Origin: an uncultured delta proteobacterium
Lineage (GTDB): Bacteria; Desulfobacterota; Binatia; Bin18
DNA length: 45,793 nucleotides
Direction of reading: 5' to 3'
Assembly (NCBI GenBank): GCA_963733195.1
Contig: CAVTCR010000027.1
Location: forward strand, 1 to 45,793
Positions 1,540-43,168 of this stretch are shown here, in pieces. Position 1 is the stretch's first letter. The number at the start of each line of letters is the position of its first letter. The notes under the pieces are model-generated. The model did no database searches, was not told the DNA's origin, and saw only the letters and a list, made by a program, of their open reading frames with translations. A program made the translations under genes and the position numbers.

Positions 1540-4160
1540 TAGCGCCTTGCCTCTTGCAAGTCTTTCGTGTCAAACCCTTCGGTGAACCAATCATAGACCT
1601 CTGCCAGCATCTTGCGAGCTTCTTTCTTCTTGCCCTGATTTTGCCATAGTCGTGCGAGACTGGTCAACGCCCGTAGTTCCCAGGATTTGGCTTGCTGGCT
1701 GACGCGCGATGTCGATGGCTTTGCGGAAACATCTCTTTTGCTTCGACGTCTGGGTACTGAGTGTTAGGGACTGGGGGTGGAGATTTTCGATTTTTGCCTT
1801 TTGCATTTTGCCTTTTGATTTTTGCTTTTCTGTGTTAGTGTGAGTTCCCCCTTGAGACCGGTACAGTTCCGCCTCAAAAGCGTACGCTCCCCCAGCCTGG
1901 GCCACTGTCGTTAGAGCATCCTCCAGCGCACCCAACCCCGTTTCAACCTGGCCTGCTTTTCTAATACACCTCAATCAACACGGAAAGGTAGGCCGGCACG
2001 CTTCTAGCTCCTGTCTCCCATCATTCGGGAAAGCGGTTAGGCCTTGGTGCATCTTTGCGATCCCTTCTGGCCAACTTGCCCTGCTCGCTCATTACGAAGA
2101 CCCTTCTGGAAGGGAGACACCCCCAGACCAATCTCCAAAGTTCTTGCTCGCAAGCGAGTGTCATTCCTTCCTCGTTGGAGTTCCCGGGCCGCTTGTTGTT
2201 CCCCGCGCTTCCCAATAAACCTCAGAAAAGCCGTGATAAGGGCAAACAATAAGCTGTAGGGCTGAGAGAGCTCCCGGGCCAGCGCGAGCGCTTCTCTGTT
2301 TCGCTTCAGGCTTGGTCGGGATAGCCAAGCACGGTAGGACATCAGGCTACACTTAGACAAGCCGGCCACCCCCAGGATCCTAGCACCCACCGTACGATCG
2401 GCTGCCGCTGGGGATCATACAGGACGATGCTCTCTTCCAGGTGCGCTCGGGCTACTGAAATTCTCCTAAATTGTAAGGTAAATCCCAGTGGCTATGACGG
2501 GCCCACACAACGAACCGGGTCCTGCCCTCTTGTGGGAAGCGTTAGCAGCTGCTCCCCCAGTTCCTGCGCGGTCGGTAACTCCGCCCGCTTACTGATAAAC
2601 TGAACAAAGTCCACCTAATAAGGAAAAAGTTGAGGCGTTTCTCCTGATCTGCTGGCAGAGCTCCCGTGCTCGCACGTACGCGTATTCCACTTCCGCGGCG
2701 CATGGCCTTTTATGGGGGTGAGTGGACTGCCCAGCGCGATTTGCAGGCTAAGTTCTTGCTGGACACGTTCGGGAGTGTCCGGAAGGTCATTGTGAGAACT
2801 CCAACCCTCTGGTCAGATGACTGATTGCCTCCTGATAGCGCACTCCGCCGTGAGGGCATTCTTCCCCGCTTGCTGCAGATACTGAATAGCCCTGCGGTAT
2901 TCCCGTCCCCGCTCAAAGTGCACTGCCAACTCCGCCGCGATCTCTCCGGCCTGCGTGCCATAGGCCGCTTCCTCTCGTTCGCCGATCCGCCGATGTAGCC
3001 CCACCCGCGGCTCCCAGTCACCCGCTCGTACACCACCTCGTGATAGAGCGCGTGGATGAAACCATAGCGGGCCGCCACCGTCCCGTCCGGCCATTCCTCC
3101 GTCCCGCGCGCCCGTATCAATTGCTGCCGCCGCACTAAGCCCGCACACCGCTCTTCTACCTCACCCACCTCTGCGTCCACTCCCGCGGCCACAGCGGCCG
3201 CCGAGAACTCTGCCCCCGCCACACTCGCAGCTTCCACCACCCGCTGCTCCTCAGGACTCAACCGCTCAAGCTGCTGCTCCACCATCTGGCGCAGGCTCTG
3301 CGGGACCCCGACCACTACCTCTTCTATGTCTCCCTGCAGTTCCCACCAACCCTCCCGCTGCACGAGGCCCCCTGTGCCACCAAATACTCCACCACATTGA
3401 CCATGAAGAGCGGATTCCCCTCCGTGCGCTGGTAAGATCACCGCGCCAGGGCGGCCGGCAGCCGATGGGTGGCAAACCTCTCCGCGAGATACTGCAGCCA
3501 CGTCTCGCTCCCCGAGAAACCGTAACGCCAGCTCCTTACAGTACCCATGCAGTTGGAGTTCCTGCTTGATGGCCGGCAGCGGATGGCCCTTCATGCTCGC
3601 GTCCATCGGGCGGTAGGTGCCAACCACCAGCAACCGGGCCGGCTGGCGCCGCCGGGCCAGGAAGGAGAGCAAGTCCAGGGTCGAGACATCACTCCAGTGC
3701 AGGTCTTCCAGCCACAGGATCAGAGGTCTCATCGGCTGTCAGCGCTTCCACCGCCTCAGCCATCTCCCGCAGCATCCGCTCGCGCGTGACCCCTTGGGTC
3801 TTCCGTTGCAGCGTCTCTAGCTCTGTGGCACTGAGCAGTGAGGGCAACTGCACGAGCCAGGTCGGGGCATGTTGACTCAGGATCTCCACAAGGCGTTGAC
3901 CTTCTGGCTCCCGACAGAGCTGTCCCAGTGCCGTCAGCACTGGCAGGTAGGCTTCGCCTGCCCCATAGTGTTCGATGCACTGCCCAGAGCCGAGCCACAG
4001 CTCACTTGTGTAGCAGCCTGCGCCAGGAAGGCTTCGACGAGGGTAGTCTTGCCAATGCCTGGCTCCCCCGTGACGAACACCACTTGGCGTTCGCCCATTC
4101 AGAGCCCTCTCCAACCACCGGTGCAGTTGCGTCAGTTCAGTCTCACGACCAACGAGGCGG
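1540..4160 (-). CDS. STAND/AAA_16-type ATPase plus TPR-like helical region (middle of the fusion; frameshifted)
   Basis: [20 protein letters not shown], Walker [12 protein letters not shown] (~4045-4080), [17 protein letters not shown], Walker [22 protein letters not shown]-terminal [10 protein letters not shown]...[14 protein letters not shown]. Confidence 0.85.
1755..1832. repeat. Degenerate 7-mer tandem repeats in a coding linker
   Basis: TTTTGCC TTTTGCA TTTTGCC TTTTGAT TTTTGCT, next to GGGTACT/GAGTGTT/AGGGACT units. Confidence 0.75.
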
Positions 4161-18554: not shown

Positions 18555-19568
18555 AGCGCCATTACCTCCTCAGCAGGTGAGAGCTGACCTGCAGCCTTGA
18601 GAACCGTTCTGCGAACCAGTTCGGCTAGCAGTGGCACTTTATAGCCATTAGCAGTCAAGGGGACGGCACCTTTGGTTGCGGCGTGCCCGGCCTGGGTAGC
18701 CAGTTCATCGCTCACGGTGTTGTCCAATTAAGACCTGCTCAGCGGCAGTTGAGCGGATTGGGACCGGGGCAACTGATCCCAACACCACCCGGGCGTCTCG
18801 CACCTTGCCGTTGTCCAGGTGCAGCACTGCTGCCGCCGCGACTAATGGCCAGTCGAAGGACTGTTTATGCTTGAGATTCATGTAGGCACTCCCGGCCTGC
18901 TGTGGCAGGCGGGGAATAGTGATGGTGGTCAGTATGTCGTCTCGTTTGAGGATATGTTCACGTTGGACATCCTGTTCGGGGGTGAGGAAAAACTCCTTCA
19001 GAGGGATAGCGCGCTCTTTTCCGTCTTTGTCTATCACGTGAAGGGTTGCCTCATAGGCAAGAAGTGGAATCGCTGCGGCTGAAGGGTGAATGCTCGCACA
19101 GGTCTGGTTTGCAAAAATCGCGTGATCGCGGTTGTCCCCTTCCTGGGCGAAACATCGCGTCCCTCCCCGCTTGCGACACAGGTACTCTTCTTGGCGGAAA
19201 TACCAGCACCGTGGGCGCTGGCACAGGTTGCCGCCAATCGTCGCCATGTTACGAACCTGCGGGGTGGCCACGCCCGACGCGACGTGCATAAGTGCGGGCC
19301 AGTTTTTCCGCACCTCTGCGTGCGTGGCGATCTGGGCGAAGGTCGTGAGCGTCCCAATACGGAGCGTACCGCTCTCGGCATCAACCGTAACGGTGCGCAA
19401 CTCAGGGATCTGACTAATATCAACAATCAAGGTCGGGGAAACAATATGTTCTTTGAGCAAATCGAGTACATCTACTCCCCCAGCTTTCAGCAGCGCATTG
19501 GCATTCTCGGCCAGAACTGCAGCGGCTGCCGCAGGGGTCTGAGGTTGCAGGTAGGCAAAGCGTTGCAT
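18551..19568 (-). CDS. Molybdo-hydroxylase FAD subunit with a 4Fe-4S insert (PaoB/YagS-like); frameshift near 18715
   Basis: LKAGGVDVLDLLK, ATPQVRNMATIGGNLCQRPRCWYFR..C......C, HPS, LGSVAPVP, NGYKVPL. Confidence 0.9.
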
Positions 19569-19591
19569 ACTTCCTCCTTCCTGTGTCCATG

Positions 19592-21958
19592 TTAGGTATG
19601 AGCACGCTGGTCACGCGCCGCCAGCGCTGCCAGGAGCCGGCTTGGCGTCAGCGGCAACTCGGTCACCCACGCACCCGTAGCATTGTAAATGGCATTCACA
19701 ACCGCGGCGATGGTCGCCACCTTTGCCGGCTCTCCTAAGTTGCGCGCGTCAGTGTTGGTCTGACCGTGGTAGACATTCAGCAGCACCGTGTCGAGCACGG
19801 GCATGTCACGCGGACCGGCCAACTTGTAGAAGAGCAAGTCCGGGATTGAGCATCCGGCCTTCCAACTCATCCATCACTCGCTCTTCAAACAGGCCAAAGC
19901 TCAAGGCATTGATGATCCCACCCTGAAGCTGACTCTCCGCCAGCAAGGGATTAAACACGCGACCACAATCTTGCACCGCGACGATCTTCTCAACCGTGAC
20001 CCGGCCGAGGCGTTCGTCGACAGTCGACTTCAGCGAATTGCACCCCGGCGATCAGGTCTTGACCCATCGACAAGCGCGGGAAGCGCCACCGCCGGACCGC
20101 CGTAATCGTCCGGGCGCTCGCCGATTGCGGCAGTTTTGCCGCCCGGCAATAAGGCGCATGCCTGCTTCCACTCCAGCGTCTGCCCGGACTGCGTCCTGAT
20201 ATGACCACCTGGGTGCACTGTTAGTGTCTCCACTGGCACGCCAAGTTTACGCGCGGCATGACGCAACAATGTCTGTTTTGCCCGATAGGCGGCCTGGCGT
20301 GCTGGTGGCGTCACCGTACTCGTCAGCTTGCTGCCACCTGGCGCTGGTGAGTACGGGTAGTCAGCATCCGCCAGCCGGACGTCGATCTGCTGCGGTTCCA
20401 GACCCAGTTCTTCTGCGATCGCTTGGGCGATGATCGTCGCTTCACCTCCACCTGGAGCTGAAGTGCTCGTAAATGCGATGACACTGCCATCCTTGTTCAG
20501 TTGGACTTCGACCTGCGCCCCAGGGTTATAGACACTGTACCAGACACTATTGGCCACACCGATCCCTCGTCGTATCGGTCCAGCCCCAGTCCCGGCCTTG
20601 GGATTACGGCGCTCTTTCCAGCCGATCCGCTCTGCGCCGATGCGTAACTCGTCAGCGCGCCAGGGGGCGCGGCCGCAACTATTGCGCAGGCGAAATTCCA
20701 CCGGGTCCTGCCCTAACCGCTCGCAGAGCATGTCGATCGCCACCTCAAGCGCAAAGGCCCCCTGCGGATGTCCAGGCGCCCGGAAGGCGCAGCCCGGACC
20801 AGTGTTCATCGCTACATCGTAATCAGCAGCCCGCACATTGCCGCAGTCATAGATGCTGAAGAACGGCCCCGATGCACCAGCACCAAAGCCAGCGCCGGCA
20901 GAGCCATGATTGACAACTTCGACCGCAGTGAGGCTCCCCTCGCGCGTACCAGCCACACGTGCCCGCATCTGATTGAGAGGACGGTTACCGCCAACGAGGT
21001 GCTCGTCTTTCCGTGAGAGGGCAATCTTCACCGGCCGTCCGGCTTTCTTGGCAAGATGGGCAGCAATAGCCGTATAGGGCAGGCTGGAGCCTTTGGTGCC
21101 GAAGTGACCGCCGATATATTGGTTCGTGACCCGCACCTGTGCATAAGGCAAACCGAAGTGGTCAGCCAATTCCTCACGTGTGCCGGTAACGGACTTGGCG
21201 CCACAGTGGACGACCAGACGACCGCCGGGTTCCCAGCTGGCCACCGCCGCGTGCGTCTCTAAACAGCTGTGGGTCTGCACAGGAGTAAAAAACTCCTGCT
21301 CCACCACGGCATCCGCTTCTTTCACTGCCTGATCGACATCGCCACGATCTTTGCCAAAGAGCGAACGCGTCGCGGGTCCAAAGACATTTCCCTTCTGGGG
21401 CGGTCCGTCCGCTGCCCACGCTGCCGCAACCGGCACAATACCTGTCGGAGCCTTGACTTGTCCCCCGCCACCAGCGCCACCGCCAGGCATGACGAGCGGA
21501 GCATCCTCACGCATTGCTTTGGCTAGGGTGACGACAAAGGGGCCGGGCTTATACTCAATCTTGATCGCACGAGCGGCATCTTCAGCTTGCTCGGGGGTGT
21601 CCGCCGCTACGGCGGCGATCTCGTGCCCCTGAAAACGGACTTGCTGGCGGTCGAGTACATACACCGCTCGCACGCCAGGCATCTTTTCCGCCCCAGAAGT
21701 ATCAACTGTACCGATCTGCGCGGCCGGATAGGGCGACCGCACGATGACACCGTACAGCATGCCGGGCAGTTTCAGATCACGGGTGTACTTCGCTTTCCCA
21801 GTCACTTTATCGCGCGCTTCAAGGCGCGGGACAGGTTTCCCCACGACACGCAACGAGCTTTTTGCATCCCACGGCGGCGGCTCGTCGTCGGGGACCACCC
21901 GTTTGACCGTCGTCAGCTGATCATCGTAACCAATAGTGAGTTCTACTTCTCGTGTCAT
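19592..21958 (-). CDS. Molybdo-hydroxylase molybdopterin subunit (PaoC/YagR-like); frameshifts near 19850-20060
   Basis: KVTGKAKY, RSPYP, HSCLETH, IGGHFG, FRAPGHPQG, DPVEFR, QDCGRVFNP, LGEP, NAIYNATG. Confidence 0.9.
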
Positions 21959-21961
21959 AGC

Positions 21962-22633
21962 TCACCCCCTCACCTGTTGCGGGTCCTGACCGGAAGCAGT
22001 CAGGACCGCCGCAAAGATGTGCGGATAGGTCCCACAGCGGCAGACGTTGCCGCTCACCGCCGCTTTGATTTCTGGCAGACTCGGCTTGGGGTTGCGATTC
22101 AGTAACGCCCGGCAACTCATTAACATCCCCGGCGTGCAGTAGCCGCACTGGAGCGCGTCATGCGCGATAAATGCTGCTTGTAATGAGTCGAGTTGCTCAT
22201 CGTTTTTTGCCAGCCCCTCGACCGTGCGAATGGCTTTCCCTTGCGCGGTAACGGCGAGAACCATACACGACACAACTGGTTCACCGTCAAGTAACACGGT
22301 ACATCCACCACAGGCGCCACGATCGCAAATCAATTTTGTTCCAGTGAGGTCAAGGTGGTCGCGTAGCGCACTGGCCAGGGTCACGCGCGGCTCCAGGCGA
22401 AGCGTATAGGTACGGTCATTCACCCGCAGCGTCATAGGAACCGGATCAGGACCGACGGCAGACTCAGCAGCGTTTTGCTCCTTGGCAGTGGCGACAGGTA
22501 ACTGGAATCCCACTGCAGCAAGACCTGCTGCGCCTGCACCTGTTCCCTTTAGAAATGAGCGGCGGGAAATGCTGGTCTTTGAGGAAGTGTTCTGTGTGCT
22601 ACTCTCTACGGGAGTGTTTTCCCCTTTGGGCAT
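21962..22633 (-). CDS. Molybdo-hydroxylase 2Fe-2S subunit with a Tat signal (PaoA/YagT-like)
   Basis: ISRRSFLK, TGTKLICDRGACGGCTV, QCGYCTPG, GNVCRCGTY; AAGGAGG RBS. Confidence 0.93.
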   Translation of the reverse strand: MPKGENTPVESSTQNTSSKTSISRRSFLKGTGAGAAGLAAVGFQLPVATAKEQNAAESAVGPDPVPMTLRVNDRTYTLRLEPRVTLASALRDHLDLTGTKLICDRGACGGCTVLLDGEPVVSCMVLAVTAQGKAIRTVEGLAKNDEQLDSLQAAFIAHDALQCGYCTPGMLMSCRALLNRNPKPSLPEIKAAVSGNVCRCGTYPHIFAAVLTASGQDPQQVRG

Positions 22634-31236: not shown

Positions 31237-32565
31237 TTATCGTCGTATCGCCGGACTTTCTACTGATAGACCTCTTGCACGCCAGGCCATGTACAACTCA
31301 AGGTTCACATAGTCGTCAGAACCTAGGGCAAAAGGTTCCGCACGGATGGAAGTATTACACCAGGCAAACATCCGGTGAGACGAACCTAGGGTCTGCCACA
31401 GTTGTCGATAGATGGGAAATCCATTGATCTGCCCTTGACTGATGACCTCACCGTGGAGTCGTTGCCCGTTGTGTAGGTCGTGGCAGTGTGCACAGGCGAG
31501 GTTCAGTTGCCCACGCCGCTGCATGTAGAACGTTCGTCCCGCTTGAAAGAATGGGCGGGCCGGGCCGTCAACCTGCACCTCCATCGGCAAACTTCGAGAT
31601 TGAAAACTGATGAACGTCGTGAGCGCTAATAATGACTCAGATTCATAGGCATAGGCTGAGGCTTTCATGTGCTGTTCGCGGCAGCGATTAATTTGCTGTT
31701 CAAGATTGATGAGCTTTTTACTCTGCGAGTCAAAGCGTGGATAACGAGAGCGTACGCCACGCATGCTTTCTGCACCGGCATGGCAACTTGCACAGGCTGT
31801 ATTGGCTGCACCGTCTGTCTTCGCCCACAACTCTCGGCCACGCTCTACCCACAACATACCAGGATTGGCAAACTCGTCGTTCTGAAGCTGTTGGTTTTCT
31901 TGCGACAGATAGGTGTAGCCTGAGCGCCGAGTTTCAACGACGTAGAGGGGTTGCTTTCGTCTGTGAGATCCTGTGTCCGATTGGGCTTCCGCTATCTGCT
32001 GAGCACTCTGCCCTTCTAAGGGTGGAGGTGTGTCTTTGAGTGTAAGTAAATACGCAATGACATCCTCAATTTCTTGCGCTGTAAGTAGTGTTTTGTTGCG
32101 ATACGGTGTAAGGACACGATAGAGCCCGCTGACTTTATAGTATGCCGGCATGACTGATTGTGGATTGATCCGTTGTGCATCAACCAAACGTAATCGTAAC
32201 GCTCCTGCCGAGTAGCGACTTCCTATCCCGTCAAGCGCTGGACCGACAGTTCCATGCATCTGACGGTCTGGGAGCGGTGCGGCGTGGCACACAAGACAGT
32301 CACCTCGCTCACGATCCATGAAGATATGTCTGCCGCGTTCAGCGTCACCAAGAGTGCTCGTGAGTGGCTCGGTAATGGCATCATTCGTGACTTGGTAGCG
32401 AGTTTGAGACTCTTCTACAGCTACCGCCTCGTCTAGGACAGCAATGTTCCATGGAAGTACTAAGATCAATAGATAGTAGATGCTCAGGAAGCACCAGTAG
32501 TGACTTCTTTGCTCTGGTCGGTGTGCGCCACGAGAGAAAATTACCTTAGGAGATCGCACGGTCAT
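31237..32565 (-). CDS. soxXA: Fused SoxX-SoxA triheme c-type cytochrome
   Basis: SoxX part: GDAERG...CLVCH...GTVGPAL...NPQSVMP. SoxA part: RRSGY...NPGMLWV..G..LW...CASCH, EQQINRCR, GQLNLACAHCH, FPIYR..WQ, C..IRAEP, LELY..WR..GL....P..RR. One uninterrupted ORF. Confidence 0.9.
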   Translation of the reverse strand: MTVRSPKVIFSRGAHRPEQRSHYWCFLSIYYLLILVLPWNIAVLDEAVAVEESQTRYQVTNDAITEPLTSTLGDAERGRHIFMDRERGDCLVCHAAPLPDRQMHGTVGPALDGIGSRYSAGALRLRLVDAQRINPQSVMPAYYKVSGLYRVLTPYRNKTLLTAQEIEDVIAYLLTLKDTPPPLEGQSAQQIAEAQSDTGSHRRKQPLYVVETRRSGYTYLSQENQQLQNDEFANPGMLWVERGRELWAKTDGAANTACASCHAGAESMRGVRSRYPRFDSQSKKLINLEQQINRCREQHMKASAYAYESESLLALTTFISFQSRSLPMEVQVDGPARPFFQAGRTFYMQRRGQLNLACAHCHDLHNGQRLHGEVISQGQINGFPIYRQLWQTLGSSHRMFAWCNTSIRAEPFALGSDDYVNLELYMAWRARGLSVESPAIRR

Positions 32566-33830
32566 GTAAAGGCATCTGCAGTGATATTGGCATACCAGGA
32601 ACGTGCATACGCTGCTTCACGGGCCCGAGTTTCGGCTGGGGCGTCTAGCGGACTAACTCCGTCGGTTCCTGGTATCGTCTCGATTACATCGTTGACGGCT
32701 CGATACACGCCCGTAATCGAAATGCCGTAATTTGGTGCGACGAGGCTATAGCACGTATTCATAAGCACAGGAGGTGCCACAGGCTCACTACGTAATAGCG
32801 AGGCGATCGCAGCCGCACATGCTTTCGCCTCAACACTAGCCCCGAAGGCTGACTTGGGTATGGGGTTTGTAATAGCGGCATCACCAATAATGTGAATGTC
32901 GTGATGTACAGTAGACTCAAAGGTACTCGCGCGCACCGGACACCACCCTTTCTTATCGTCAAGATCTACCACCCTTGCTATCAAGGCGGCCCGCTGCGGG
33001 GGAATGATATTTGCCACTGCCGGTTTGTATTCATCAAAGTCCGTCCGTACAATCCCTTCACGTATGTCAACCCGATTCGCCCGGCCTCCTTGCGAACCTG
33101 AGACCCATTCTAAGGTGGTAGGATACAGCTGCTTCCAAGCCGAGACAAAGAGTTCCTTTTTGGTAAACGTATCTTTGGCATCAAGAACCAGCACCTTCGA
33201 GCGGGGCTTATTTTTCTTGAGATAATACGCAATGAGACTAGCGCGTTCATAAGGACCTGGAGGACAACGGTATGGGTTCTCTGGTACGGTAATGACTACG
33301 AGTCCACCATCTGCCATTGTTTCAAGCTGACGGCGTAAGATCTCGGTTTGCGGACCAGCTTCCCACGCATGGGGAAACACAGTACTCGCCGTGGACGTGT
33401 ACCCTTCGATCGCTCCCCACTGAAGTTCAACACCAGGGCTAAGAACGAGGCGATCATAGGTGAGTTTCTTGCCATCACTTAACATGAGTTGATGCTTCAC
33501 TGGGTCAAGATCAGTGGCCGTGGCATATACCACGCGAACCCTGTAGCGCTGCCGAAGGGTATCGTAAGTATGAGTAAGGGAGGCTAATGACTGTTGGCCA
33601 GCCACTACAGCATTACTAAATGGGCACGTGATAAAACTACGTTGTGTCGTCACGAGTGTGATATCAAGTGAGGAATCTGCCCGGCGGAGATATTTCGCGC
33701 AGGTCGCACCACCAAAACCTCCACCAACCACCACTACTCGGCCTTTCGTCTCTGCTCGGCTCAGATCGGGATGAACACCGGCAGCCAGCAATCCACTCGC
33801 AAGGTGAAGAAACGAACGACGCGTCATCAT
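32562..33830 (-). CDS. fccB: Flavocytochrome c sulfide dehydrogenase flavoprotein (FccB/SoxF) with a Tat signal
   Basis: TRRSFL, VVVGGGFGGATCAKY, TCPFSN, PHAW, YRCPPGPYERA, IGDA, PKSA, NTCYSLV. Confidence 0.9.
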   Translation of the reverse strand: MMTRRSFLHLASGLLAAGVHPDLSRAETKGRVVVVGGGFGGATCAKYLRRADSSLDITLVTTQRSFITCPFSNAVVAGQQSLASLTHTYDTLRQRYRVRVVYATATDLDPVKHQLMLSDGKKLTYDRLVLSPGVELQWGAIEGYTSTASTVFPHAWEAGPQTEILRRQLETMADGGLVVITVPENPYRCPPGPYERASLIAYYLKKNKPRSKVLVLDAKDTFTKKELFVSAWKQLYPTTLEWVSGSQGGRANRVDIREGIVRTDFDEYKPAVANIIPPQRAALIARVVDLDDKKGWCPVRASTFESTVHHDIHIIGDAAITNPIPKSAFGASVEAKACAAAIASLLRSEPVAPPVLMNTCYSLVAPNYGISITGVYRAVNDVIETIPGTDGVSPLDAPAETRAREAAYARSWYANITADAFT

Positions 33831-33839
33831 CAGTGAGTC

Positions 33840-34187
33840 CTACGGCCGTTGTCTTTTCGTAAAATATGAAGCTATCGCGTCGATGTCTGCCTCATCTAGA
33901 CCTTGAGTCAAACGATTCATCACCGTTCCTGACCGTTCACCACTACGAAATGAGCGTAGAGAATCACGCAAGGCGTTCGCGGGCATCGTGTTTAATGGCG
34001 GAATTGCGCCCGTACTGTGACCTTCAGGGCCATGGCACGCAGCGCAGGCATTTGCTAAGGCGGTCCCTCGTTGTACGGTCTGATCTGATGCACTGGCGTC
34101 GAACATACTTCCGACAACCGATATTGTCATGCAGAGGAACCACAATAGAGGCAGCTTAACCCAAGTATGAGCCGTTTCGTCATTCAT
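33840..34187 (-). CDS. Monoheme cytochrome c (FccA/c4-like)
   Basis: Signal-like N-terminus, ACAACHGPEG, GTVMNR (Met ligand), IDAIASYF. Confidence 0.88.
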   Translation of the reverse strand: MNDETAHTWVKLPLLWFLCMTISVVGSMFDASASDQTVQRGTALANACAACHGPEGHSTGAIPPLNTMPANALRDSLRSFRSGERSGTVMNRLTQGLDEADIDAIASYFTKRQRP

Positions 34188-34507
34188 GGCAGCACGGTAA
34201 TCGCAATCCGTTCTACCTCACTCTGTCCTGTGTCGTCAGCCCACGAAATTTCTAACTCACCCGACTGTGTCGCTGTGGTAAAAAAAGACAGATACGGGTT
34301 AGCGGAGATACCCGGAAACAGTTCGGCTCGAAAGACCTCAATGCTATTGTAGCGGCAGGTGAGTAGATTAATGGTGTTCTGCGGGATCGCCTTGCCGACT
34401 TCATCATGGCGGAGTCCCGTCTCCATAGGATGGCGAATAAGAAGACGCACTTCAAAGATTTGCCCGTGCTTAATCTCTGTCGGAACCTGAATCCTCGCAT
34501 TTGCCAT
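34184..34507 (-). CDS. soxZ: Sulfur carrier subunit SoxZ
   Basis: VRLLIRHPMETGLR, ISANPYLSF, SGELEISWADD. Confidence 0.92.
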   Translation of the reverse strand: MANARIQVPTEIKHGQIFEVRLLIRHPMETGLRHDEVGKAIPQNTINLLTCRYNSIEVFRAELFPGISANPYLSFFTTATQSGELEISWADDTGQSEVERIAITVLP

Positions 34508-34560
34508 GATTTTTTTTACGAATCACACACGACACATTTCGTATGCGCATTCTGTCATTA

Positions 34561-35040
34561 TTATTCGTCAATACACGCAGCTGTTGTGACCACAACTTCC
34601 GTGGACCCAAGCCATGCAGAATTGTTATTCATCACTGCAAGTGCAACTACGTGTTGAGTCCCAGCAAGACGAATACGGGTGTTGATCTCGGCTTTGCCAG
34701 ACTGAGGTCCGAGGTGAAAACGGGCAATAACTGGTCGCGGATTCCTTTCTGAGAAAACATGAACACTTTTCACGTAATTCTCCGTGGTCATCGGACTCTC
34801 TATCTGTAATTTCAACGGGACCGAGTTACCGCTCTCGGCAAGAGGAGGAAGCGTCAGTTTCACCTTCCCTACTGTCGGGGTGATTCCCCCAGTGACCTCG
34901 TCAATGAGTGGCTGCAAACGTGGCGGAACTTGGGCTGCAACACTTTCGCTCCTTGCTGCTGGGAAGAGAAGCATGGCGGCAAGTGTCCTAAGCACTTGCC
35001 GCCGCGATAGTGCAAATTGTGACATCGATATCTCTCGCAC
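34561..35040 (-). CDS. soxY: SoxY-like sulfur carrier with a Tat signal and a non-canonical C-terminus
   Basis: LSRRQVL, LPPLAESGNSVP, ERNPRP, TRIRLAGTQ.V.A; ends VVVTTAACIDE. Confidence 0.88.
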   Translation of the reverse strand: MREISMSQFALSRRQVLRTLAAMLLFPAARSESVAAQVPPRLQPLIDEVTGGITPTVGKVKLTLPPLAESGNSVPLKLQIESPMTTENYVKSVHVFSERNPRPVIARFHLGPQSGKAEINTRIRLAGTQHVVALAVMNNNSAWLGSTEVVVTTAACIDE

Positions 35041-35046
35041 GGGATG

Positions 35047-37224
35047 CTATGCTTTTCGCAAATCATGATGCTTCAACGGCAATGAACGAATCCGTTTGCC
35101 AGTTGCGGCGTAGATAGCGTTACAAATTGCTGGGGCCAGTGGTGCGAGTGGCGGCTCACCAGCCCCACCCCAGAATCCACCTGTTGGTGCGAGTACCACT
35201 TCGACCTTTGGCATCTCGGCAATGCGCATCATGGGATAATCATGAAAATTGGACTGCTCGACTCTCCCGTCCTTTATTGTGATCTCGCCATACAAAATGG
35301 CTGTCAACCCATAGACGACGCAACCTTCGACTTGAGCACGAACAGAATCAGGATTCACGACATATCCACTATCAAGGCCAATAATCAGGCGATGGATCTT
35401 GAGTTCACCCTTGTCACTCACAGAGACTTCAGCGACCGCTGCGGTGTAACTTCCATAAGCATCTTGGACGGCAATGCCGCGATGCACCCCTGCGGGTAGA
35501 GATTTCTCCCAATTGGCGGCTTTGGCCACGGCATCAAGGATACCCAGATCACGTGTTGCTTTGACAAGGAGTTTGCGGCGGAATTGATACGGATCTTTTC
35601 CTGCAGCGACCGCGAGTTCGTCAATGAAGCACTCACGGAAGAACGGATTATGGGTATGCGCAACCGCTCGCCACGGACCCGGTGGTACGTGAGTGTTGCG
35701 CATCGCATACTCCATGCGAATGTTCGGAAATGCATATGGCGCATCAGAGAACGTTCTCACCCCAATGCTATCAATGCCATTCTTCACCATTTCAGGTCTT
35801 ACACTATTGAAAATCGATTGATCTGCTTGGCGAACATACCACGCTGTTGGTTCATTCGCCGCATCAAGCGCGGCTCGCATCCGTACCAATGCTACAGGTC
35901 GATAGTGTCCGTGCTGAATATCTTCTTCCCGCGACCAGATCAATTTCACAGGCTTTCCTGGAAGCGCCTTAGCGATGGTGACAGCTTGCCGAACATAATC
36001 GAGGACCAGGCCACGCCGGCCAAAGCCACCGCCAATGTGGACCTTATGTACTTCAACATTGCTCAAAGGAATTTCCGTGATCTCAGCAGCCAACGCTGCG
36101 GTTGCTTCGCTATTCTGCGAAGGAGCCCAGACTTCAACACGGCCATCGTGGATATAGGCCGTACAATTCTGCGGCTCCATAGTTGCGTGTTCTAGATATG
36201 GTGCGTAGTACTCAGCCTCGACGACTTTAGCAGCTCCAGCAAAGGCTTTGTCTATGTCCCCTTCTTGGCGTGAGACTGGAGCATCTTTTACTGTGATACC
36301 TTCACGGAGGAACTCCATAATACTAGCGCTGCTGACTTTCGCGTTGTCGCCAAAGTTCCATTCAATTGGCAGTTCTCGCAACGCTTGTTGTGCGTGCCAC
36401 CAACTTCCTTCAGCAACGACGGCAACGGCGCTTTCCATCGGTACCACTTTAACTACACCAGGCTTGCTAGAGATTTTGTCAGCGTCGGCATTTTTGAGGG
36501 TGCCACCAAATACCGGGCATTGCGCGATCGCGGCATAGACCATGCCTGGGAGTTTCGTATCAATGGCAAAAGCCGTCTTGCCCGTGACTTTGTCCGGGAT
36601 GTCAAAGCGTTTGACGGGTTGTCCGATCAGCTTCCACTCCCTAGGATCTCTGAGGACGACATCAGTAGGAATATCGAGCTTGGCGGCATCAGCAGCGACC
36701 GCACCATACTTCACCTGTCGTTTGCTCGATGTGTGGGTAACAACTCCGTGGGCTGCTGTACATTCTGCTGGCAGAACTCCCCACTTGTTGGCAGCTGCAG
36801 TGACCAACATCGTCCGTGCGGCAGCCCCAGCTTGGCGCAGATACTCGTGGCTATCACGGATCGATCTGCTGCCGCCGGTTAACATTTCTTTGAAGACACG
36901 GTTGCGGCGTAAGTGTTCGCTGGTGGAGGCATATTCAGCGCGGACCTGCTTCCAATCACACTCCAACTCTTCGGCAATCAACATCGGGAGGCCAGTAAAA
37001 CTACCCTGCCCCATTTCTGTCCGCGCGACACGAATCAGAATAGTGTCATCTGGATTGACGAGTACCCAGGCTGTGACTTCCGGTCCGACGCTGGACGCAG
37101 CTGCTTTCTGCTGTTTTTTAGCGAGAACCGTTTGGGGGAGGCAGACACCGATCATAAGGCCGCCGCCCACCGTGGCACTCCGCACTAGAAAAGCTCGGCG
37201 TGAAAGATGCTGAGACGCTGGCAT
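35047..37224 (-). CDS. Molybdo-hydroxylase large subunit (isoquinoline 1-oxidoreductase beta/IorB-like) with a Tat signal
   Basis: LSRRAFLV, RTEMGQG...IAEEL, TGGSRS, HATMEPQNC, GGGFGRR, WRAV, VNPD...AQ.EG, QSNFHDY, GGAGEP. Confidence 0.93.
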   Translation of the reverse strand: MPASQHLSRRAFLVRSATVGGGLMIGVCLPQTVLAKKQQKAAASSVGPEVTAWVLVNPDDTILIRVARTEMGQGSFTGLPMLIAEELECDWKQVRAEYASTSEHLRRNRVFKEMLTGGSRSIRDSHEYLRQAGAAARTMLVTAAANKWGVLPAECTAAHGVVTHTSSKRQVKYGAVAADAAKLDIPTDVVLRDPREWKLIGQPVKRFDIPDKVTGKTAFAIDTKLPGMVYAAIAQCPVFGGTLKNADADKISSKPGVVKVVPMESAVAVVAEGSWWHAQQALRELPIEWNFGDNAKVSSASIMEFLREGITVKDAPVSRQEGDIDKAFAGAAKVVEAEYYAPYLEHATMEPQNCTAYIHDGRVEVWAPSQNSEATAALAAEITEIPLSNVEVHKVHIGGGFGRRGLVLDYVRQAVTIAKALPGKPVKLIWSREEDIQHGHYRPVALVRMRAALDAANEPTAWYVRQADQSIFNSVRPEMVKNGIDSIGVRTFSDAPYAFPNIRMEYAMRNTHVPPGPWRAVAHTHNPFFRECFIDELAVAAGKDPYQFRRKLLVKATRDLGILDAVAKAANWEKSLPAGVHRGIAVQDAYGSYTAAVAEVSVSDKGELKIHRLIIGLDSGYVVNPDSVRAQVEGCVVYGLTAILYGEITIKDGRVEQSNFHDYPMMRIAEMPKVEVVLAPTGGFWGGAGEPPLAPLAPAICNAIYAATGKRIRSLPLKHHDLRKA

Positions 37225-37320
37225 AATAGCTCTCCTTAAAAACTCCCCTGTTCACACTACACAAACCGCAGTCCGTAGTGCGTCAGGAATAAACACGTTT
37301 TATGGAATACGCATCACGAT

Positions 37321-37770
37321 TCACGCACTCTTCGCCGCGGCATGGATCGCTTTGCGTATGCGAGCATAGGTTCCACAACGACAGATGTTGGTCACCTCGG
37401 CGTCGATGTCTGCGTCGGTAGGCTGAGGTTTCTTCTTGAGGAGTGCAGCAGCAGCCATAACCATACCTGGCTGACAATAGCCGCATTGCGGAACTTGCTC
37501 AGCAACCCAAGCTTTCTGCACGGGATGATCGCCATTGGGAGAAAGGCCCTCGATGGTGAGGACTTTCTTTCCTACGGCAGCTGATGCTGGCAAGACGCAG
37601 GAGCGTACGGCTTCACCATCCAGATGCACCGTACAGGATCCACACAGCGCCATGCCACATCCATACTTCGCACCGGTGAGACCAATGGCGTCTCGCAAAA
37701 CCCACAGAAGAGGCATCTCTGGGTTGACATCCACAGAGTGTGATTTGCCATTAACCATAAGCTCGATCAT
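37321..37770 (-). CDS. Molybdo-hydroxylase 2Fe-2S subunit (IorA-like)
   Basis: [41 protein letters not shown]. Confidence 0.94.
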
Positions 37771-37900: not shown

Positions 37901-38956
37901 TTACAACCCTCGCACCGCGGGCAATACGTCCTGCGCGAAACGACGCATACTACTGAGCACCTCTCTGTGAGGGACGAGGCCGCCAGGATTAAACCAACAG
38001 ATCAATTGATTCATCTCACACAGTCTATGTGCTTCAGTGATCTTGCGGATGCAGGTGTCCGGCGAACCATAGATTCCCATCGTTTGATCGATATCGTCCC
38101 ACGTCACTGTGTCGAATCGCTGTCGCACTTCACGTAAATACGTATAGGAAGCTCCTTGCTCTCGTTGTCCCAGTTTTGCTTGATGGCTGACAGTGCGGAA
38201 GTAGTGCATGGTACTGTCTTCGACTGCATGTCGAGCGTGTTCGCCGCTATCTGTGACAAAGAACTTGAACGCGACGGCCACATCCTCTTGGGCAGTCTGA
38301 TGTCCAGTATTCTTGAAGGCATCGCGATAGATCGCGATATGACGCGGAAGTTCAGGGAATGGATGAATGGTAGCAGCGACAAGAACAGGGTATGCGTGTG
38401 TGCCAGCGAAAGCTGCAGTTTCAGGGCTATTGGCAGCGATACGAAGCGGAGGATGTGGTTTCTGCAGCGGTTTTGGTGCGATTGCGGTTTCTGGTACGTG
38501 AAAGTACTTCCCAGTGAAGTGAAAAGTGTTTTGCGTCCATGCGTTAGTAATGATTGTTAACGCTTCCTCGAACCTCTCACGACTGTCATCTCGCGAGACG
38601 TTAAACCCTTGGAAATGCAGCGCGATAGTTCCGCGACCTATACCGAATTCCAAGCGGCCATTCGTAAGGATGTCGACAGTAGCCGCATCTTCAGCAGCGC
38701 GTAGCGGGTGTTGCAAAGATAATAATGCGACCGCCGTACCAAGACGAATACGCTTTGTGTGTTGAGCAACCGCAGTGGCTACAAGCATGGGGGCAGGCAT
38801 GATCGAGAACGGACGATTAAAGTGCAGTTCCGCCAACCAGGCAACGTCAAATCCGAGTTCGTCAGCATAGACGATCTGCTCGATTGTTTCGTGATAGCGA
38901 GTGACTTCATCTTGTTCAGGTCCGCATGGGAGTTGGTAAAAGAGCCCGAATTTCAT
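37901..38956 (-). CDS. Luciferase-like monooxygenase (LLM) family
   Basis: MKFGLF, LGFDVAWLAELHF, IRLGTAV, AEDAATVDIL..GRLEFGIGRG, PKPLQKPHPP. Confidence 0.92.
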   Translation of the reverse strand: MKFGLFYQLPCGPEQDEVTRYHETIEQIVYADELGFDVAWLAELHFNRPFSIMPAPMLVATAVAQHTKRIRLGTAVALLSLQHPLRAAEDAATVDILTNGRLEFGIGRGTIALHFQGFNVSRDDSRERFEEALTIITNAWTQNTFHFTGKYFHVPETAIAPKPLQKPHPPLRIAANSPETAAFAGTHAYPVLVAATIHPFPELPRHIAIYRDAFKNTGHQTAQEDVAVAFKFFVTDSGEHARHAVEDSTMHYFRTVSHQAKLGQREQGASYTYLREVRQRFDTVTWDDIDQTMGIYGSPDTCIRKITEAHRLCEMNQLICWFNPGGLVPHREVLSSMRRFAQDVLPAVRGL

Positions 38957-39505: not shown

Positions 39506-40021
39506 ATGACATCGTACCGATTACTCGAACAACTCCTCAAAATGGAACAGCGCGTTCGTCAGGTCTATGTTGTCTTGAGTCAACATCAACAATTCCCTGC
39601 TGAACTTCGTACCTTGTGGAGCGTGATGGCAGAGGATGAAACGCACCATATTATCGCCTTGGAGCGATCGGCTCATCTGTTGAGTGTTATGGACTTCCCT
39701 CCGTCGATCGTAGAGAACGTGCTCGCCAACGTAGAGACGATAATAACGACCGCCGAAGCCAGCGTTCAACAACCGAGCCTGACCAGCGACGAGGCGTTCC
39801 ATCAAGCATTGCTGATTGAAGGTTCGGAATTGAACCATATCAATGCAGCATGGATGCACGGCTTCCGTTCGACCACGAGATTACTACTGGAGACGTTCGT
39901 GCCCGAAGCACACCAACACGTTCGACGTCTGATCGAAGCAGCGCATCGTTTCAGCACTGACGCAACCGTGCATGCAGAAGCCAATACTCTGTGTTCGCAA
40001 TACGAGAAAGCTCGTGAGTAA
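39506..40021 (+). CDS. Hypothetical ferritin/rubrerythrin-like helical protein
   Basis: LLKMEQRVRQVY...LWSVMAEDETHH...ALLIEGSE...EAHQH: E / ExxH / E / H spacing of four-helix di-metal bundles. Confidence 0.6.
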   Translation: MTSYRLLEQLLKMEQRVRQVYVVLSQHQQFPAELRTLWSVMAEDETHHIIALERSAHLLSVMDFPPSIVENVLANVETIITTAEASVQQPSLTSDEAFHQALLIEGSELNHINAAWMHGFRSTTRLLLETFVPEAHQHVRRLIEAAHRFSTDATVHAEANTLCSQYEKARE

Positions 40022-40161: not shown

Positions 40162-40750
40162 TTAGTGAAATGGCGTCACCAGCATGGCGGCCACGAAGGG
40201 ATCATCCACACTATTGGGGGTGATGATCTCAAAGAGATCCAGGAAGCCGACCATCTCTAAGACATTGCGAATCTCACGAGGAACGTCGAACAGGCGCAGG
40301 TGACTGTCATGCGCAGCCAGATGCTTTTGCCCGGCCAACAGCGCCGCCAAGCCGGGTGAACTTAAGAACGTGACCTCAGTCATAACAAGATCAACATCAA
40401 CAAAGGCTCGCTGTAGTTCGCGCCGGAGCGCCGGGGCCGTGTTCGTGTCAATCCTGCCCTTCGCAATCAGTGAGGTCCGCTCCCACTCAAGGGTCAAACC
40501 AGAAGGGACGTCAGCCACCGGTCCACTCGGTAATTGCCGGGTTCGTTCCCGTATCTCCGCAACCTGGGGCCCGGGCAGCACGGCCACGATTTTGTTGTCT
40601 GAATTCTCGTGAACCTTCACCTCAATATCCGCAGGAACTTCAATGCCTTCCTCGGCCAATGCTTTTCGGGGGGTCTGCCAAGAGACGTGCACGATAGGCA
40701 GCATCCGTACAGGCCCGTACGATCGCTAGTTTCACTGGGTTCGCTTTCAT
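40162..40750 (-). CDS. NHLP leader-like domain fused to a STAS (anti-sigma antagonist) domain; one frameshift in a G6 run near 40670
   Basis: AAGGAGGAG RBS; MKANPVKLAIVRACTDAAYRARLLAD|PRKALAEEGIEVPADIEVKVHENSDNKIVAVLP, then KGRIDTNTAPALRREL...VTFLSSPGLAALL...IRNVLEMVGFLDLFEII. Confidence 0.82.
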
Positions 40751-40761
40751 TGTGCTCCTCC

Positions 40762-41031
40762 TTACGCTTCACTCGCCTCTACTAGAGGAGGTAGTACAAG
40801 GTGAATGACTTTATCAGTGTTTTCGACAATCTCCACCTCAAGACCCGCAGGCAAAGTGATGCCAGCTTCGGCCAAGACCTGCTTGGGAGCCTGCAAAAGG
40901 CGTTGACGCAGAGCGGGATCCTCTGTTGCTTTTTGCACGAGCTGACCGAAGGAGCCCCGCGTTTCCATGACCAGCAAGTAATCGCGAAAGAATCGGCGTA
41001 CAGAACCAAGAAAGGATGCAGATCCCGCCAT
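40762..41031 (-). CDS. Stand-alone NHLP (nitrile hydratase alpha-like leader) domain protein without a core peptide
   Basis: QLVQKATEDPALRQRLLQAPKQVLAEAGITLPAGLEVEIVENTDKVIHLVLPP, with the stop 7 residues later. Confidence 0.85.
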   Translation of the reverse strand: MAGSASFLGSVRRFFRDYLLVMETRGSFGQLVQKATEDPALRQRLLQAPKQVLAEAGITLPAGLEVEIVENTDKVIHLVLPPLVEASEA

Positions 41032-41278
41032 ATAGATGAAGTCCCCTTTCCAAATCTCTAAGGATAGGCAACATACAGCGCAGCTTCCCCTGAGGTCAAT
41101 GCGTGGGCTCTCCGTCACCACAGAAGATCTCACAGGTAGTTGCACACCACGTCTCTGAAGGAGATTATATGGCATCGTCGCTTTGGGGAGGATCCTCTAG
41201 GCGAGAATTGGAGCCCGTCACCACGAGGATTTGAGAGAGGCGGAACATGCTCTTGCGTGAGGAGAGCGAGGTAACGTT

Positions 41279-43013
41279 ATGCCTGAGACAATGCCAACGA
41301 TTGATATCGAACGTGAGATTCGTAATCTCAATGCGATTTTGGAAGTGTCCAAGGCTATGTCCAGCGAGATCCAACTGGATAATCTGCTGCAAGTCATCGT
41401 GCAGAAAACTGTAGAAATTATGGAGGCAGACCTCGCCAGCCTCTTCTTGTACGATGAAGGGCACAACGAATTGTGGAGTAAGATTGCCCACAAGCTCGGA
41501 CAACTACAGGAAATTCGTTTCTCAGTGGGGGTGGGTATTGCCGGAGATGTGGCCAAGACTCGTCAGGCAGCGAATATTGCCGATGCCTATACTGACCCGA
41601 GATTCAATTCGGACTTCGACAAACAGACAGGGTATCAGACGCGCTCTATTCTTTGTCTGCCCATGATGAGTAGCAAGGGTAAGCTGGTCGGCGTTATCCA
41701 GGTTCTGAACAAGAAAGACAGAGGAGTCTTTGATGAGCGAGACGAGTCGCTTTTGGCGGCGTTGGCTGCTCACGCCGCAGTAGCGCTGGAACGGGCACAG
41801 CTTACCGAAGTCTACGTCGAGAAGCAGCGAATGGACGAGGCACTCAAGTCTCGCACGCGAGATCCAGATGGGTATGTTACCCAAACGATTTCCCCCTTTC
41901 CCGCATCAATCGGAGATCGACCTCTACGCCGCCATCGAACCCGCGCGGGAGGTAGGAGGAGACTTCTACGATTTTATGCTCATTGATGACGACCATCTCG
42001 GTTTCGCCATCGGCGATGTTTCCGGTAAGGGTGTCCCGGCATCGTTGTTTATGTCGGTGACGAAAACTTTGCTCAGGGTCACGGCCGGCAAGCGAGGCCG
42101 TCCTGATGCTGTTCTTGCCGAGCTGAATAATGAACTCTGTCGTGACAACGATACTGGCATGTTTGTCACCATTTTTTACGGAATTCTGCGCCTGCGCACT
42201 GGAGAATTGGAGTACAGTAGCGGCGGTCATAACCTCCCTTATGTCCTCTTTCAAAATGGCGCGGTGGAAGCTCTCGAACAGACGGGGGGAATGGCACTGG
42301 GCGTACTTGAGGGTATTACGTACGGAGCAAAGAAAGTCACATTGCTGCCAAGAGAGGAGCTCTTCCTATACACCGACGGGGTGACAGAGGCGATGGATAG
42401 TGCCGGCAACCTCTTCTCGGACCACCGTTTGCGAGAGTTTTTACAACGAGAACACAAGTTGTCACCGACCGAGCTGATTAAACAGCGTCGTGAGTGAAGT
42501 GAGGCGTTTTTCTTGCGGCGTCGAGCAGAGTGATGATATTACCGCCCTAGCCATACACTACCTGAGCGATGACAATCACGACGAGACCACTATGAGTAAG
42601 CCAATGTCGATTCGCTTCAAGAACAATCTATCGGAGGTTGAGCGATTAGGTCAGGTGGTGGCAGAATTCGCAGAACTATACCATTTGCCTCCAAACCTGG
42701 GCTTCGATATCTATATGGCTCTGGAAGAGAGCCTGACGAACGTGATTTCCTACGGATACGACGATTCGGATGAGCACGAAATTATGATTCGTCTATCCTG
42801 CCAGGGGGAAGAAGTAACAGCAGTGGTTGAGGACGACGGCCGGCCATTTAATCCGTTGGAGGCGGCAGCGCCGGATACGAGCAAACCGCTTGAGGAAAGG
42901 CCAGTGGGAGGTTTGGGGATTCATTTGCTGCGGAAGTTAATGGACGATGTGGAATACAAAAGACAGAGGAGAGAAATCTCCTGGCGATGAAAAAGAGAAT
43001 CTCATTGACCTGA
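41279..43013 (+). CDS. GAF-SpoIIE/PP2C phosphatase-HATPase_c (RsbW-like kinase) fusion; frameshifts near 41848, 42480 and 42965
   Basis: GAF: NIADAYTDPRFN..D..TGYQTRSILC.P...GVIQVLNK. PP2C: EVGGDFYD, IGDVSGKG, LYTDGVTEA, QSDDIT. In the same frame as QSDDIT: EESLTNVISYG, VEDDGRPFNP, GGLGIHL. Confidence 0.85.
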
Positions 43014-43048
43014 AGTCACTTAAGTGAAGAATACATAAGGAATCGACT

Positions 43049-43168
43049 ATAGACATTACAGAAGAAAACGTGGAGAGGTTATGTTTCTCGGGATCAAAAG
43101 GGAGGCTGGACACGAGTACGGCAAGCAGGTTGGAGGAGAACTCCTGGCGTCGATAGATGGAAAGGTAC
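43049..43168 (+). pseudogene. Truncated STAS (RsbV/SpoIIAA-like) remnant
   Basis: TAAGGA RBS, ATA at the expected start, DITEE...KGRLDTSTASRLEE; similarity ends before the phospho-Ser motif. Confidence 0.7.

Follow-up and report, generated by a model that had tools for sequence, protein, structure and literature searches.

To our knowledge, NHLP domains have no known role other than that of unusually large, folded leaders of the precursors of peptides that are made on ribosomes and modified after translation (RiPPs). RsbR-type proteins combine a non-STAS N-terminal domain with a STAS domain, and Rv1364c of Mycobacterium tuberculosis is a multidomain PP2C-RsbW-STAS protein. In the closest described partner-switching systems, a STAS protein (SpoIIAA or RsbV) is served by a kinase (SpoIIAB or RsbW) and a PP2C phosphatase (SpoIIE or RsbU), as represented by PDB entries 6m36, 1th8 and 1til. 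Here we analyze a locus in which these themes meet. It lies in a 45,793-nucleotide (nt) stretch of DNA (the window; contig CAVTCR010000027.1 of assembly GCA_963733195.1) from an uncultured bacterium of the Binatia. The locus consists of a gene for a small NHLP-like protein, an adjacent gene for a fusion protein that joins an NHLP-like unit to a STAS domain (NHLP-STAS), and a divergently oriented gene for a protein with GAF, PP2C and RsbW-type kinase domains. The NHLP-STAS fusion is a genuine, conserved family, and the module formed by the two adjacent genes is best read as a variant form of partner-switching proteins and as a use of the NHLP fold outside RiPP biosynthesis.

All three genes lie where an initial annotation, made from the letters of the DNA alone, had placed them. 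The small NHLP-like gene (40762-41031, minus strand) has 89 codons followed by TAA. Its product scores 60.6 bits on TIGR03793, the NHLP leader model (cut-off, 50.9), over model positions 7-60 of 77, and is laid out as an N-terminal FxxDY helix followed by three helices and a beta hairpin. The C-terminal end, HLVLPPLVEASEA, has neither an ELS..VAGG motif nor a core, in agreement with the initial description of this protein as lacking both. The NHLP-STAS gene (40162-40750, minus strand) has 195 codons in relatives and is interrupted here by one extra base, so its first 26 codons (40672-40750) sit in a different frame from the long open reading frame (ORF) at 40162-40704. This ORF contains the STAS domain (40222-40470, minus strand), which exceeds the cut-offs of PF01740 (36.2 bits versus 22.6) and PF13466 (37.4 versus 29.2), and a partial NHLP match corresponding to the back half of the unit (32.6 bits on TIGR03793). 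An intact homologue of 195 residues from public data, P0001 (LLADPRKALAEEG), is 99% identical and reaches 52.8 bits on TIGR03793. Its NHLP-like unit (residues 1-66; 40552-40750, minus strand, in the window) matches model positions 7-66 and is the surface that the small protein is predicted to contact. Both N-terminal domains are thus NHLP-like, as first proposed.

The divergent gene (41279-42990, plus strand) scores 79.4 bits for GAF, 156.6 for SpoIIE-type PP2C and 88.9 for HATPase_c_2, the RsbW-type kinase domain. It is spread over three frames, which the initial annotation had not mentioned, whereas an intact orthologue of 576 residues is present in a related genome (L014:5791-7521; L-numbers denote loci and G-numbers genomes, with G000 the source genome). 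The region between it and the small gene (41032-41278) is 247 nt long, close to the distance of about 250 nt given earlier. An alignment of seven loci shows within it a conserved, consensus-like TTGACC at 41094-41099 (minus strand), followed ~17 nt downstream by a TATGTT-like hexamer, and a putative ribosome-binding stretch, GGAAAGGGG, ahead of the small gene.

That the fusion would have homologues was an expectation of the initial annotation, and the search for this architecture bore it out. Of 622 candidates for the fusion protein, 80 homologue clusters pass E <= 0.001; most are 195 residues long, and a few rows are truncated or chimeric. The small protein has 52 homologues (among 57 candidates). 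Close homologues are labeled at NCBI as Candidatus Binatia or, in older records, as metagenome-assembled genomes of Deltaproteobacteria, and are named "STAS domain-containing protein" or "NHLP leader peptide family natural product precursor." Gene order was assessed in 34 loci (the window, 3 related genomes and 30 metagenome contigs) in which the start of the fusion gene and at least 188 nt upstream are visible. The small gene is immediately upstream of the fusion gene, or fused to it, in 33 of these, the exception being L039. Stop and start overlap in 24 of the 29 two-gene loci (10 by 4 nt, as ATGA, and 14 by 1 nt), which suggests coupled translation. The pair had been described as an operon with an 11-nt gap; the genes are indeed adjacent, but the gap exists because of a premature TAA at 40762-40764, and relatives have the overlap instead. 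At one locus (L043:2-1462), the pair of small gene and main NHLP-STAS gene has a second, diverged NHLP-STAS copy directly upstream, a local duplication.

Among 61 related species-representative genomes, four encode the two-domain NHLP-STAS protein, all within the family of the window's organism (3 of 36 genomes besides G000). In a sample of 401 genomes from the phylum, both domains were found only in G000; 11 genomes have a match at E <= 1e-15, 10 of them to the STAS part only. A search of genome contigs with P0001 as a single sequence gave no relative.

Natural fusions provide further evidence that the two proteins belong together, and genes fused in other lineages usually function together. 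At four metagenome loci (L044, L045, L047 and L049), no stop separates the pair, and a single ORF encodes the small protein, NHLP, STAS, PALP and ACT domains; the C-terminal part of these ORFs is a pyridoxal-phosphate-dependent threonine dehydratase with an ACT domain. About 20 database clusters of proteins of approximately 700-710 residues share this build. A profile search of 1.84 billion representatives returned 17 clusters at E <= 1e-30. On a Pfam scan, these include two-domain forms of 180-211 amino acids, single-chain forms of 258-287 amino acids that combine the small protein, NHLP and STAS (P0166, for example, has members in Planctomycetota), and a metagenomic protein of 741 amino acids (P0169) with the order NHLP-STAS-FHA-GAF-HATPase_c, in which the last domain is a histidine-kinase-type ATPase and the chain lacks the small unit. 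In another form, an OmpR-type winged-helix domain (Trans_reg_C) precedes the small protein, NHLP and STAS; its full-length member of 394 amino acids is from Candidatus Entotheonella serta, and the search with P0307 gave the winged-helix match only. The effector domains of the fused forms suggest what the free module may control. In the source genome, nothing closely orthologous to the fused threonine dehydratase is present; the best match there, on contig C8, is 38% identical.

One proposal of the initial annotation was that the NHLP fold serves to pair the two proteins, and structure prediction agrees with the gene order and the fusions on this point. The complex of the small protein with the fusion protein scored 0.70 (0.69, 0.71 and 0.70 in separate runs), compared with 0.00 for the best of three controls. 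At least 79% of the contacts were common to the runs, and the predicted local distance difference test score (pLDDT) of the partner was at least 76. The predicted interface places residues 4-66 of the fusion protein against residues 6-19 and 63-84 of the small protein, with a strand pairing of fusion residues 43-47 with residues 75-80 of the small protein. A heterodimer of the two proteins is therefore predicted. An AlphaFold model of a natural single-chain relative of 300 residues (pLDDT, 84.1; predicted template modeling score, 0.81) shows three helices and a hairpin twice, followed by STAS. This is a doubling of the topology of NHLP leaders, given as three helices and a two-strand antiparallel sheet in PMC12537861.

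The N-terminal 165 residues of the single-chain relative, folded alone (pLDDT, 79.2), were compared with 48,161 representative chains, and only the alpha subunit of nitrile hydratase (NHase) exceeded Z 5. The match to 2dpp_A has Z 8.8, a root mean square deviation of 3.9 and 120 aligned residues, with model residues 18-159 on chain residues 58-189; 4ob1_A follows at Z 8.7. The next matches are far weaker: Os1348 at Z 2.8 and two proteusin leaders at Z 2.6 and 2.5. An hhalign comparison with the genome's own NHase alpha gave a Prob of 96.5 over 113 collinear columns, placing units 1 and 2 on the stretches that precede and follow the CTLCSC metal claw, respectively. The claw itself falls opposite the LPP... 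linker, in which there are no cysteines. Going by these models, the paired units amount to a metal-free NHase alpha core that is split across two genes.

Several differences separate the pair from the enzyme and from other NHLP-type proteins. NHase alpha (TIGR01323, PF02979) has the CxLCSC claw, is encoded by one gene, and must score 249.85 bits on the TIGR01323 equivalog model; the small protein and P0001 score 24.7 and 28.1 bits, and no beta subunit gene adjoins them. Proteusin-type leaders (TIGR03793; the MprE chimera 8tb1 and DprE2 9cjx; PMC12537861) resemble each unit in predicted topology as well as in above-cut-off scores, and 8tb1 is matched in sequence at E 8.9e-12. However, no cleavage motif, core, maturase or exporter is found here, the units are predicted to pair with each other, and one of them is fused to STAS. 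The NHLP-Burk type (TIGR03795) is also formed by units derived from NHase alpha that occur in adjacent pairs and are sometimes fused (PMC2887384). In contrast to that system, the match here is weak (18.9 bits versus a cut-off of 41), there is no neighboring cyclodehydratase of the thiazole/oxazole-modified microcin (TOMM) type, and STAS is attached. Os1348 of Pseudomonas sp. Os17 (PDB 6lk7; PMC7726476) is another small NHLP-clan protein that dimerizes, and weak matches to NF038399 occur here. It differs in that it is all-helical, forms a homodimer and is presumed in that source to be a bacteriocin precursor, and the structural match does not exceed the Z score given above.

Haft et al. (2010; PMC2887384) describe NHLP as a form of NHase alpha from which 63 residues, the claw among them, have been deleted. 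Given its collinearity with NHase alpha itself, the pair may have the enzyme, and not a leader, as its ancestor. The initial annotation's description of co-opted RiPP leaders is not supported as a statement about the direction of descent. The source genome also contains five NHase alpha matches in four loci (contigs C13, C21, C50 and C52), of which the C50 gene is in two pieces. One of them, a 330-residue ORF at G000:C21:16483-17475 (L005:1144-2136), has an NHase alpha part with a CVLCSC claw and approximately 130 extra C-terminal residues.

We next consider whether the proteins could be genuine RiPP precursors, with the small protein, the C-terminal tail of the fusion protein or both being cleaved and modified by a distant cluster. 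Scores above the TIGR03793 cut-off for both proteins fit such a role, as do the many small-protein relatives that terminate in GG plus one to three residues and the ..FGG.. tails of a few fusion relatives. However, the TIGR03793 matches end at model positions 60-66 of 77, before the cleavage motif, and no core follows. The GG codons of the small gene coincide with the GGAGG ribosome-binding site of the NHLP-STAS gene, GG is missing from P0129 and P0131, and there is little beyond it that could serve as a peptide. The tail of the fusion protein is variable and is modeled as a packed helix, and at four loci the "leader" continues directly into the second domain. No maturase or exporter is present among the 26 ORFs of the window, as initially noted, or among 66 neighboring ORFs of related loci, where the neighbors are unrelated metabolic genes. 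We conclude that the NHLP-STAS module is not a RiPP precursor, and we regard the idea of processing by a distant cluster as barely credible.

A related idea, put forward in the initial annotation, is that the module acts as a decoy. As an alpha-subunit mimic, the pair would bind a beta subunit or activator of NHase, or else a maturase that recognizes leaders and is encoded elsewhere, and would thereby tie that enzyme to phosphorylation signaling. The collinear fold is compatible with this, as are the richness of the lineage in NHase alpha (five matches here) and a cassette on contig C65 with a YcaO gene and a protein resembling a RiPP recognition element (RRE). Still, NHase alpha occurs in 34 of 36 genomes of the family and the fusion in 3 of 36, so co-occurrence is uninformative and points to no specific link, and no NHase or RiPP gene adjoins the pair in any scanned locus. 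The other TIGR03793 matches in the source genome are true NHase alpha genes only, and the best TIGR03795 match there has E 0.39; no other NHLP or NHLP-Burk precursor was found in the genome. It has one weak match (30.2 bits) to a C39 peptidase, and a search for LanC-like proteins gave no match, although its control gave none either. Its sole YcaO is of the SagD type (TIGR03604, 233.8 bits; cut-off, 219.25) and is located at L086:6039-7373 (minus strand), within G000:C65:118500-132000, together with Dyp-peroxidase pieces, the RRE-like winged helix, a PhyH dioxygenase and protein-kinase fragments. We recognized no precursor nearby. Among the 61 relatives, YcaO orthologues occur in G000, G001, G010, G018, G022, G023 and G030, and the fusion in G000, G011, G013 and G022, so that only two genomes have both. 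On this distribution, YcaO and NHLP-STAS do not depend on each other. We therefore consider the mimic or decoy explanation to be very unlikely. The 53 matches to TIGR03903 in the source genome were considered as a TOMM marker and rejected, because they represent a generic cyclase/ATPase family. These approximately 50 paralogues are large proteins of the cyclase/AAA-ATPase/TPR type, encoded on many contigs, that match the model from position ~280 onward; 18 of the 53 have in-frame stops.

The STAS domain resembles known switch proteins. The STAS part of the relative's model matches Bacillus subtilis RsbV with Z 15.4, a root mean square deviation of 1.0 and 93 aligned residues, and SpoIIAA with Z ~13. 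The second serine of FLSSPGL (S131 of P0001; codon at 40357-40359, minus strand) aligns with the DSTG serine of RsbV and with the first DSSG serine of SpoIIAA, the phosphorylated residues of those proteins. The SpoIIAA variant in 1til and 1tid has alanine at exactly this position. The serine, which the initial annotation had singled out as a retained phospho-acceptor, is invariant in all 58 two-domain and all 29 single-chain sequences compared. In the divergent neighbor, the kinase domain aligns with RsbW and SpoIIAB across the N, G1 and G2 motifs. Compared with SpoIIAA/RsbV modules, the STAS protein here bears an N-terminal NHLP unit and would need a second small protein, and kinase, phosphatase and GAF are in one polypeptide. 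An extra N-terminal domain on a phosphorylatable STAS domain is reminiscent of RsbR-type proteins, as is the presence of phosphatase and kinase in one chain of Rv1364c; unlike in RsbR-type proteins, the N-terminal domain here has another fold that is completed by a second gene product.

The 6.9-Mb source genome has about six SpoIIE-type PP2C loci and ten HATPase_c_2 matches. Because SpoIIE-type PP2C genes are so few, the adjacency of the NHLP pair and the GAF-PP2C-kinase gene is not due to chance. A STAS gene is found within ~11 kb of all six PP2C loci, and within ~1.5 kb of five, which would fit one cognate substrate per enzyme; the sole STAS gene near the window's GAF-PP2C-kinase gene is NHLP-STAS. 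We also surveyed 20 Binatia-type loci in which at least ~900 nt upstream of the pair are visible. A divergent GAF-PP2C(-kinase) gene is present in seven (the window, L014 and L017-L021). Two have another PP2C gene downstream: an sCache-HAMP-SpoIIE gene followed by a kinase domain in L016, and a HAMP-SpoIIE gene with a free STAS in L044. Five have a PPP-like Metallophos gene of 245-250 codons directly upstream (L015, at 3206-3958 on the minus strand, L033, L034, L035 and L038). The best named matches of its product are ApaH and Ser/Thr phosphatase models, far below their cut-offs, and this product is a candidate for a different phosphatase acting on the STAS serine. At these five loci, the Metallophos gene comes after LipB-like and enoyl-CoA hydratase genes. 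Conversely, at 21 loci of GAF-PP2C relatives from other lineages, no NHLP gene adjoins.

On this basis, we propose the following mechanism. The two co-translated genes would produce one heterodimeric regulatory protein with two NHLP units, one from each gene and both built of three helices and a beta hairpin. Both hairpins would pair into a single sheet, with the N-terminal helix of the small protein packed on top, and the assembled pair would rebuild the NHase alpha core fold without the cysteine metal site. The result would be an inert, enzyme-like docking domain carried on a STAS domain of the SpoIIAA/RsbV type with its phospho-acceptor serine. We infer that the kinase domain encoded by the divergent gene phosphorylates this serine, that the PP2C domain dephosphorylates it, and that a ligand bound by GAF controls both actions. 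The partner held by the NHLP2-STAS adaptor would then depend on the phosphorylation state. Other lineages may have this partner, whether winged-helix DNA-binding domain, threonine dehydratase or histidine kinase, fused to the adaptor. On balance, we hold it to be probable that the module is a heterodimeric adaptor of this kind, in which the docking domain, NHase-alpha-like but split and metal-free, is carried by a phosphorylatable STAS domain that is served, at this locus, by a GAF-regulated kinase/phosphatase.

Several points weigh against this proposal. The complex score was obtained with our own alignments, so its calibration, in which 58 of 80 solved complexes but also 2 of 110 mismatched pairs attained the score mark, holds only roughly. 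Moreover, the predictor may have learned the sheet pairing from NHase alpha structures. The STAS part is below the cut-off of TIGR00377, the NCBIfam anti-sigma antagonist model (42.5 versus 53.45 bits). Among the 26 ORFs of the window, there is no sigma factor or other output, a further difference from SpoIIAA/RsbV modules, and no genome-wide search for sigma factors was made. The PP2C/kinase neighbor to which the initial annotation drew attention is present in the window but is not a general companion of the pair: it occurs at 9 of the 20 Binatia-type loci only, with Metallophos instead at 5 and neither at 6, and it is absent within 5 kb of the Planctomycetota locus. Finally, the window's own copies of the genes are broken.

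The irregular neighborhood raises the alternative that STAS is not a kinase substrate. NHLP2-STAS would then bind a ligand or a protein without phosphorylation, in the manner of MlaB or of transporter STAS domains, and the kinase/PP2C association would be a secondary development in one sub-clade. Besides the 11 Binatia-type loci and the Planctomycetota locus at which no PP2C or kinase is near, this explanation can draw on the matches of the STAS model to MlaB and SLC26 STAS domains (Z 9-12.7) and on the fused forms, which bring their own effector. Nonetheless, the serine at the acceptor position is invariant in all forms, RsbV and SpoIIAA are the best structural matches, and three distinct PP2C arrangements adjoin the module even though PP2C genes are rare in the one genome in which they were counted. 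We therefore think it rather unlikely that STAS escapes phosphorylation.

The broken state of the genes could reflect either the assembly or the organism. Relative to P0001 and to contigs of relatives, the window's copies contain three insertions of 1 nt and one premature stop. The comparison contigs are from soil and rhizosphere short-read runs and are at least 92% like the window; stretches that they leave uncovered (for example, 42625-43100) carry no information. These contigs omit one letter each at 40668/40670, 41849 and 42480, which are exactly the three frame breaks. The first is the G6 run at 40668-40673, across which P0001 reads straight; the initial annotation had correctly called for its correction. 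The other two are the breaks in the GAF-PP2C-kinase gene. At 40764, relatives have C in place of A, which changes TAA (40762-40764) to GAA, so the stop of the small gene is absent there. Reading then continues to a TGA at 40747-40749 that overlaps the ATG of the next gene, and the small protein of relatives accordingly has 93-94 residues. Contigs from the RNA library X15 span 40172-41050, which is a weak hint of transcription because such libraries can contain DNA.

If the frameshifts and the premature stop were real, the module would be dead in this organism, a set of pseudogenes at a decaying locus, whatever its role elsewhere. Four disabling changes within 2.8 kb, when compared with close relatives' contigs and P0001, speak for decay. 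However, broken frames are frequent across the assembly: the sole YcaO gene is split, the 18 of 53 paralogues mentioned above contain stops, and the share of long ORFs is 0.57 on the window's contig (C27) compared with a genome median of 0.66. Also, each of the three indels is a single extra letter, which is the pattern of a sequencing artifact. We consider assembly errors to be quite likely the cause of these changes, and decay to be an appreciable but clearly lesser possibility.

A full-text literature search, whose coverage excludes subscription journals, returned no description of the NHLP-STAS architecture, in line with the initial annotation, and the main text of Haft et al. (2010; PMC2887384), the one relevant paper among those listed, does not contain "STAS." Automatic annotation names such genes "natural product precursors," and genome miners should not count them as RiPP precursors. 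For research on partner switching, the family provides a module with identifiable outputs, as the fused forms name DNA binding and threonine dehydratase. The division of a pseudo-enzyme between two genes is also a tidy case of its kind.

A bolder interpretation, which we regard as improbable though deserving of mention, is that the NHLP fold is an autonomous docking domain beyond peptide natural products. Two halves of a metal-free NHase alpha mimic, assembled on a phosphorylatable STAS domain, would make a portable signal adaptor, in which serine phosphorylation gates docking through the type of surface by which RiPP maturases recognize leaders. In the course of evolution, this adaptor would have been built into a transcription factor (in Candidatus Entotheonella, a lineage of proteusin producers), a threonine dehydratase and sensor kinases. 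If this were true, proteusin leaders and the module would put a single docking fold to two sister uses, and a new class of partner-switching output would be defined by the module.

Elsewhere in the window, a sulfur-oxidation set on the minus strand (31237-35040) encodes a SoxA/TsdA-like cytochrome, a flavocytochrome c sulfide dehydrogenase, a small cytochrome c and SoxY, and two molybdenum hydroxylase gene sets are nearby (18705-22633 and 35047-37770). An ORF of 171 codons (39506-40021, plus strand), whose product has no Pfam match, is flanked by a luciferase-like monooxygenase gene (37901-38956) on one side and by NHLP-STAS on the other.

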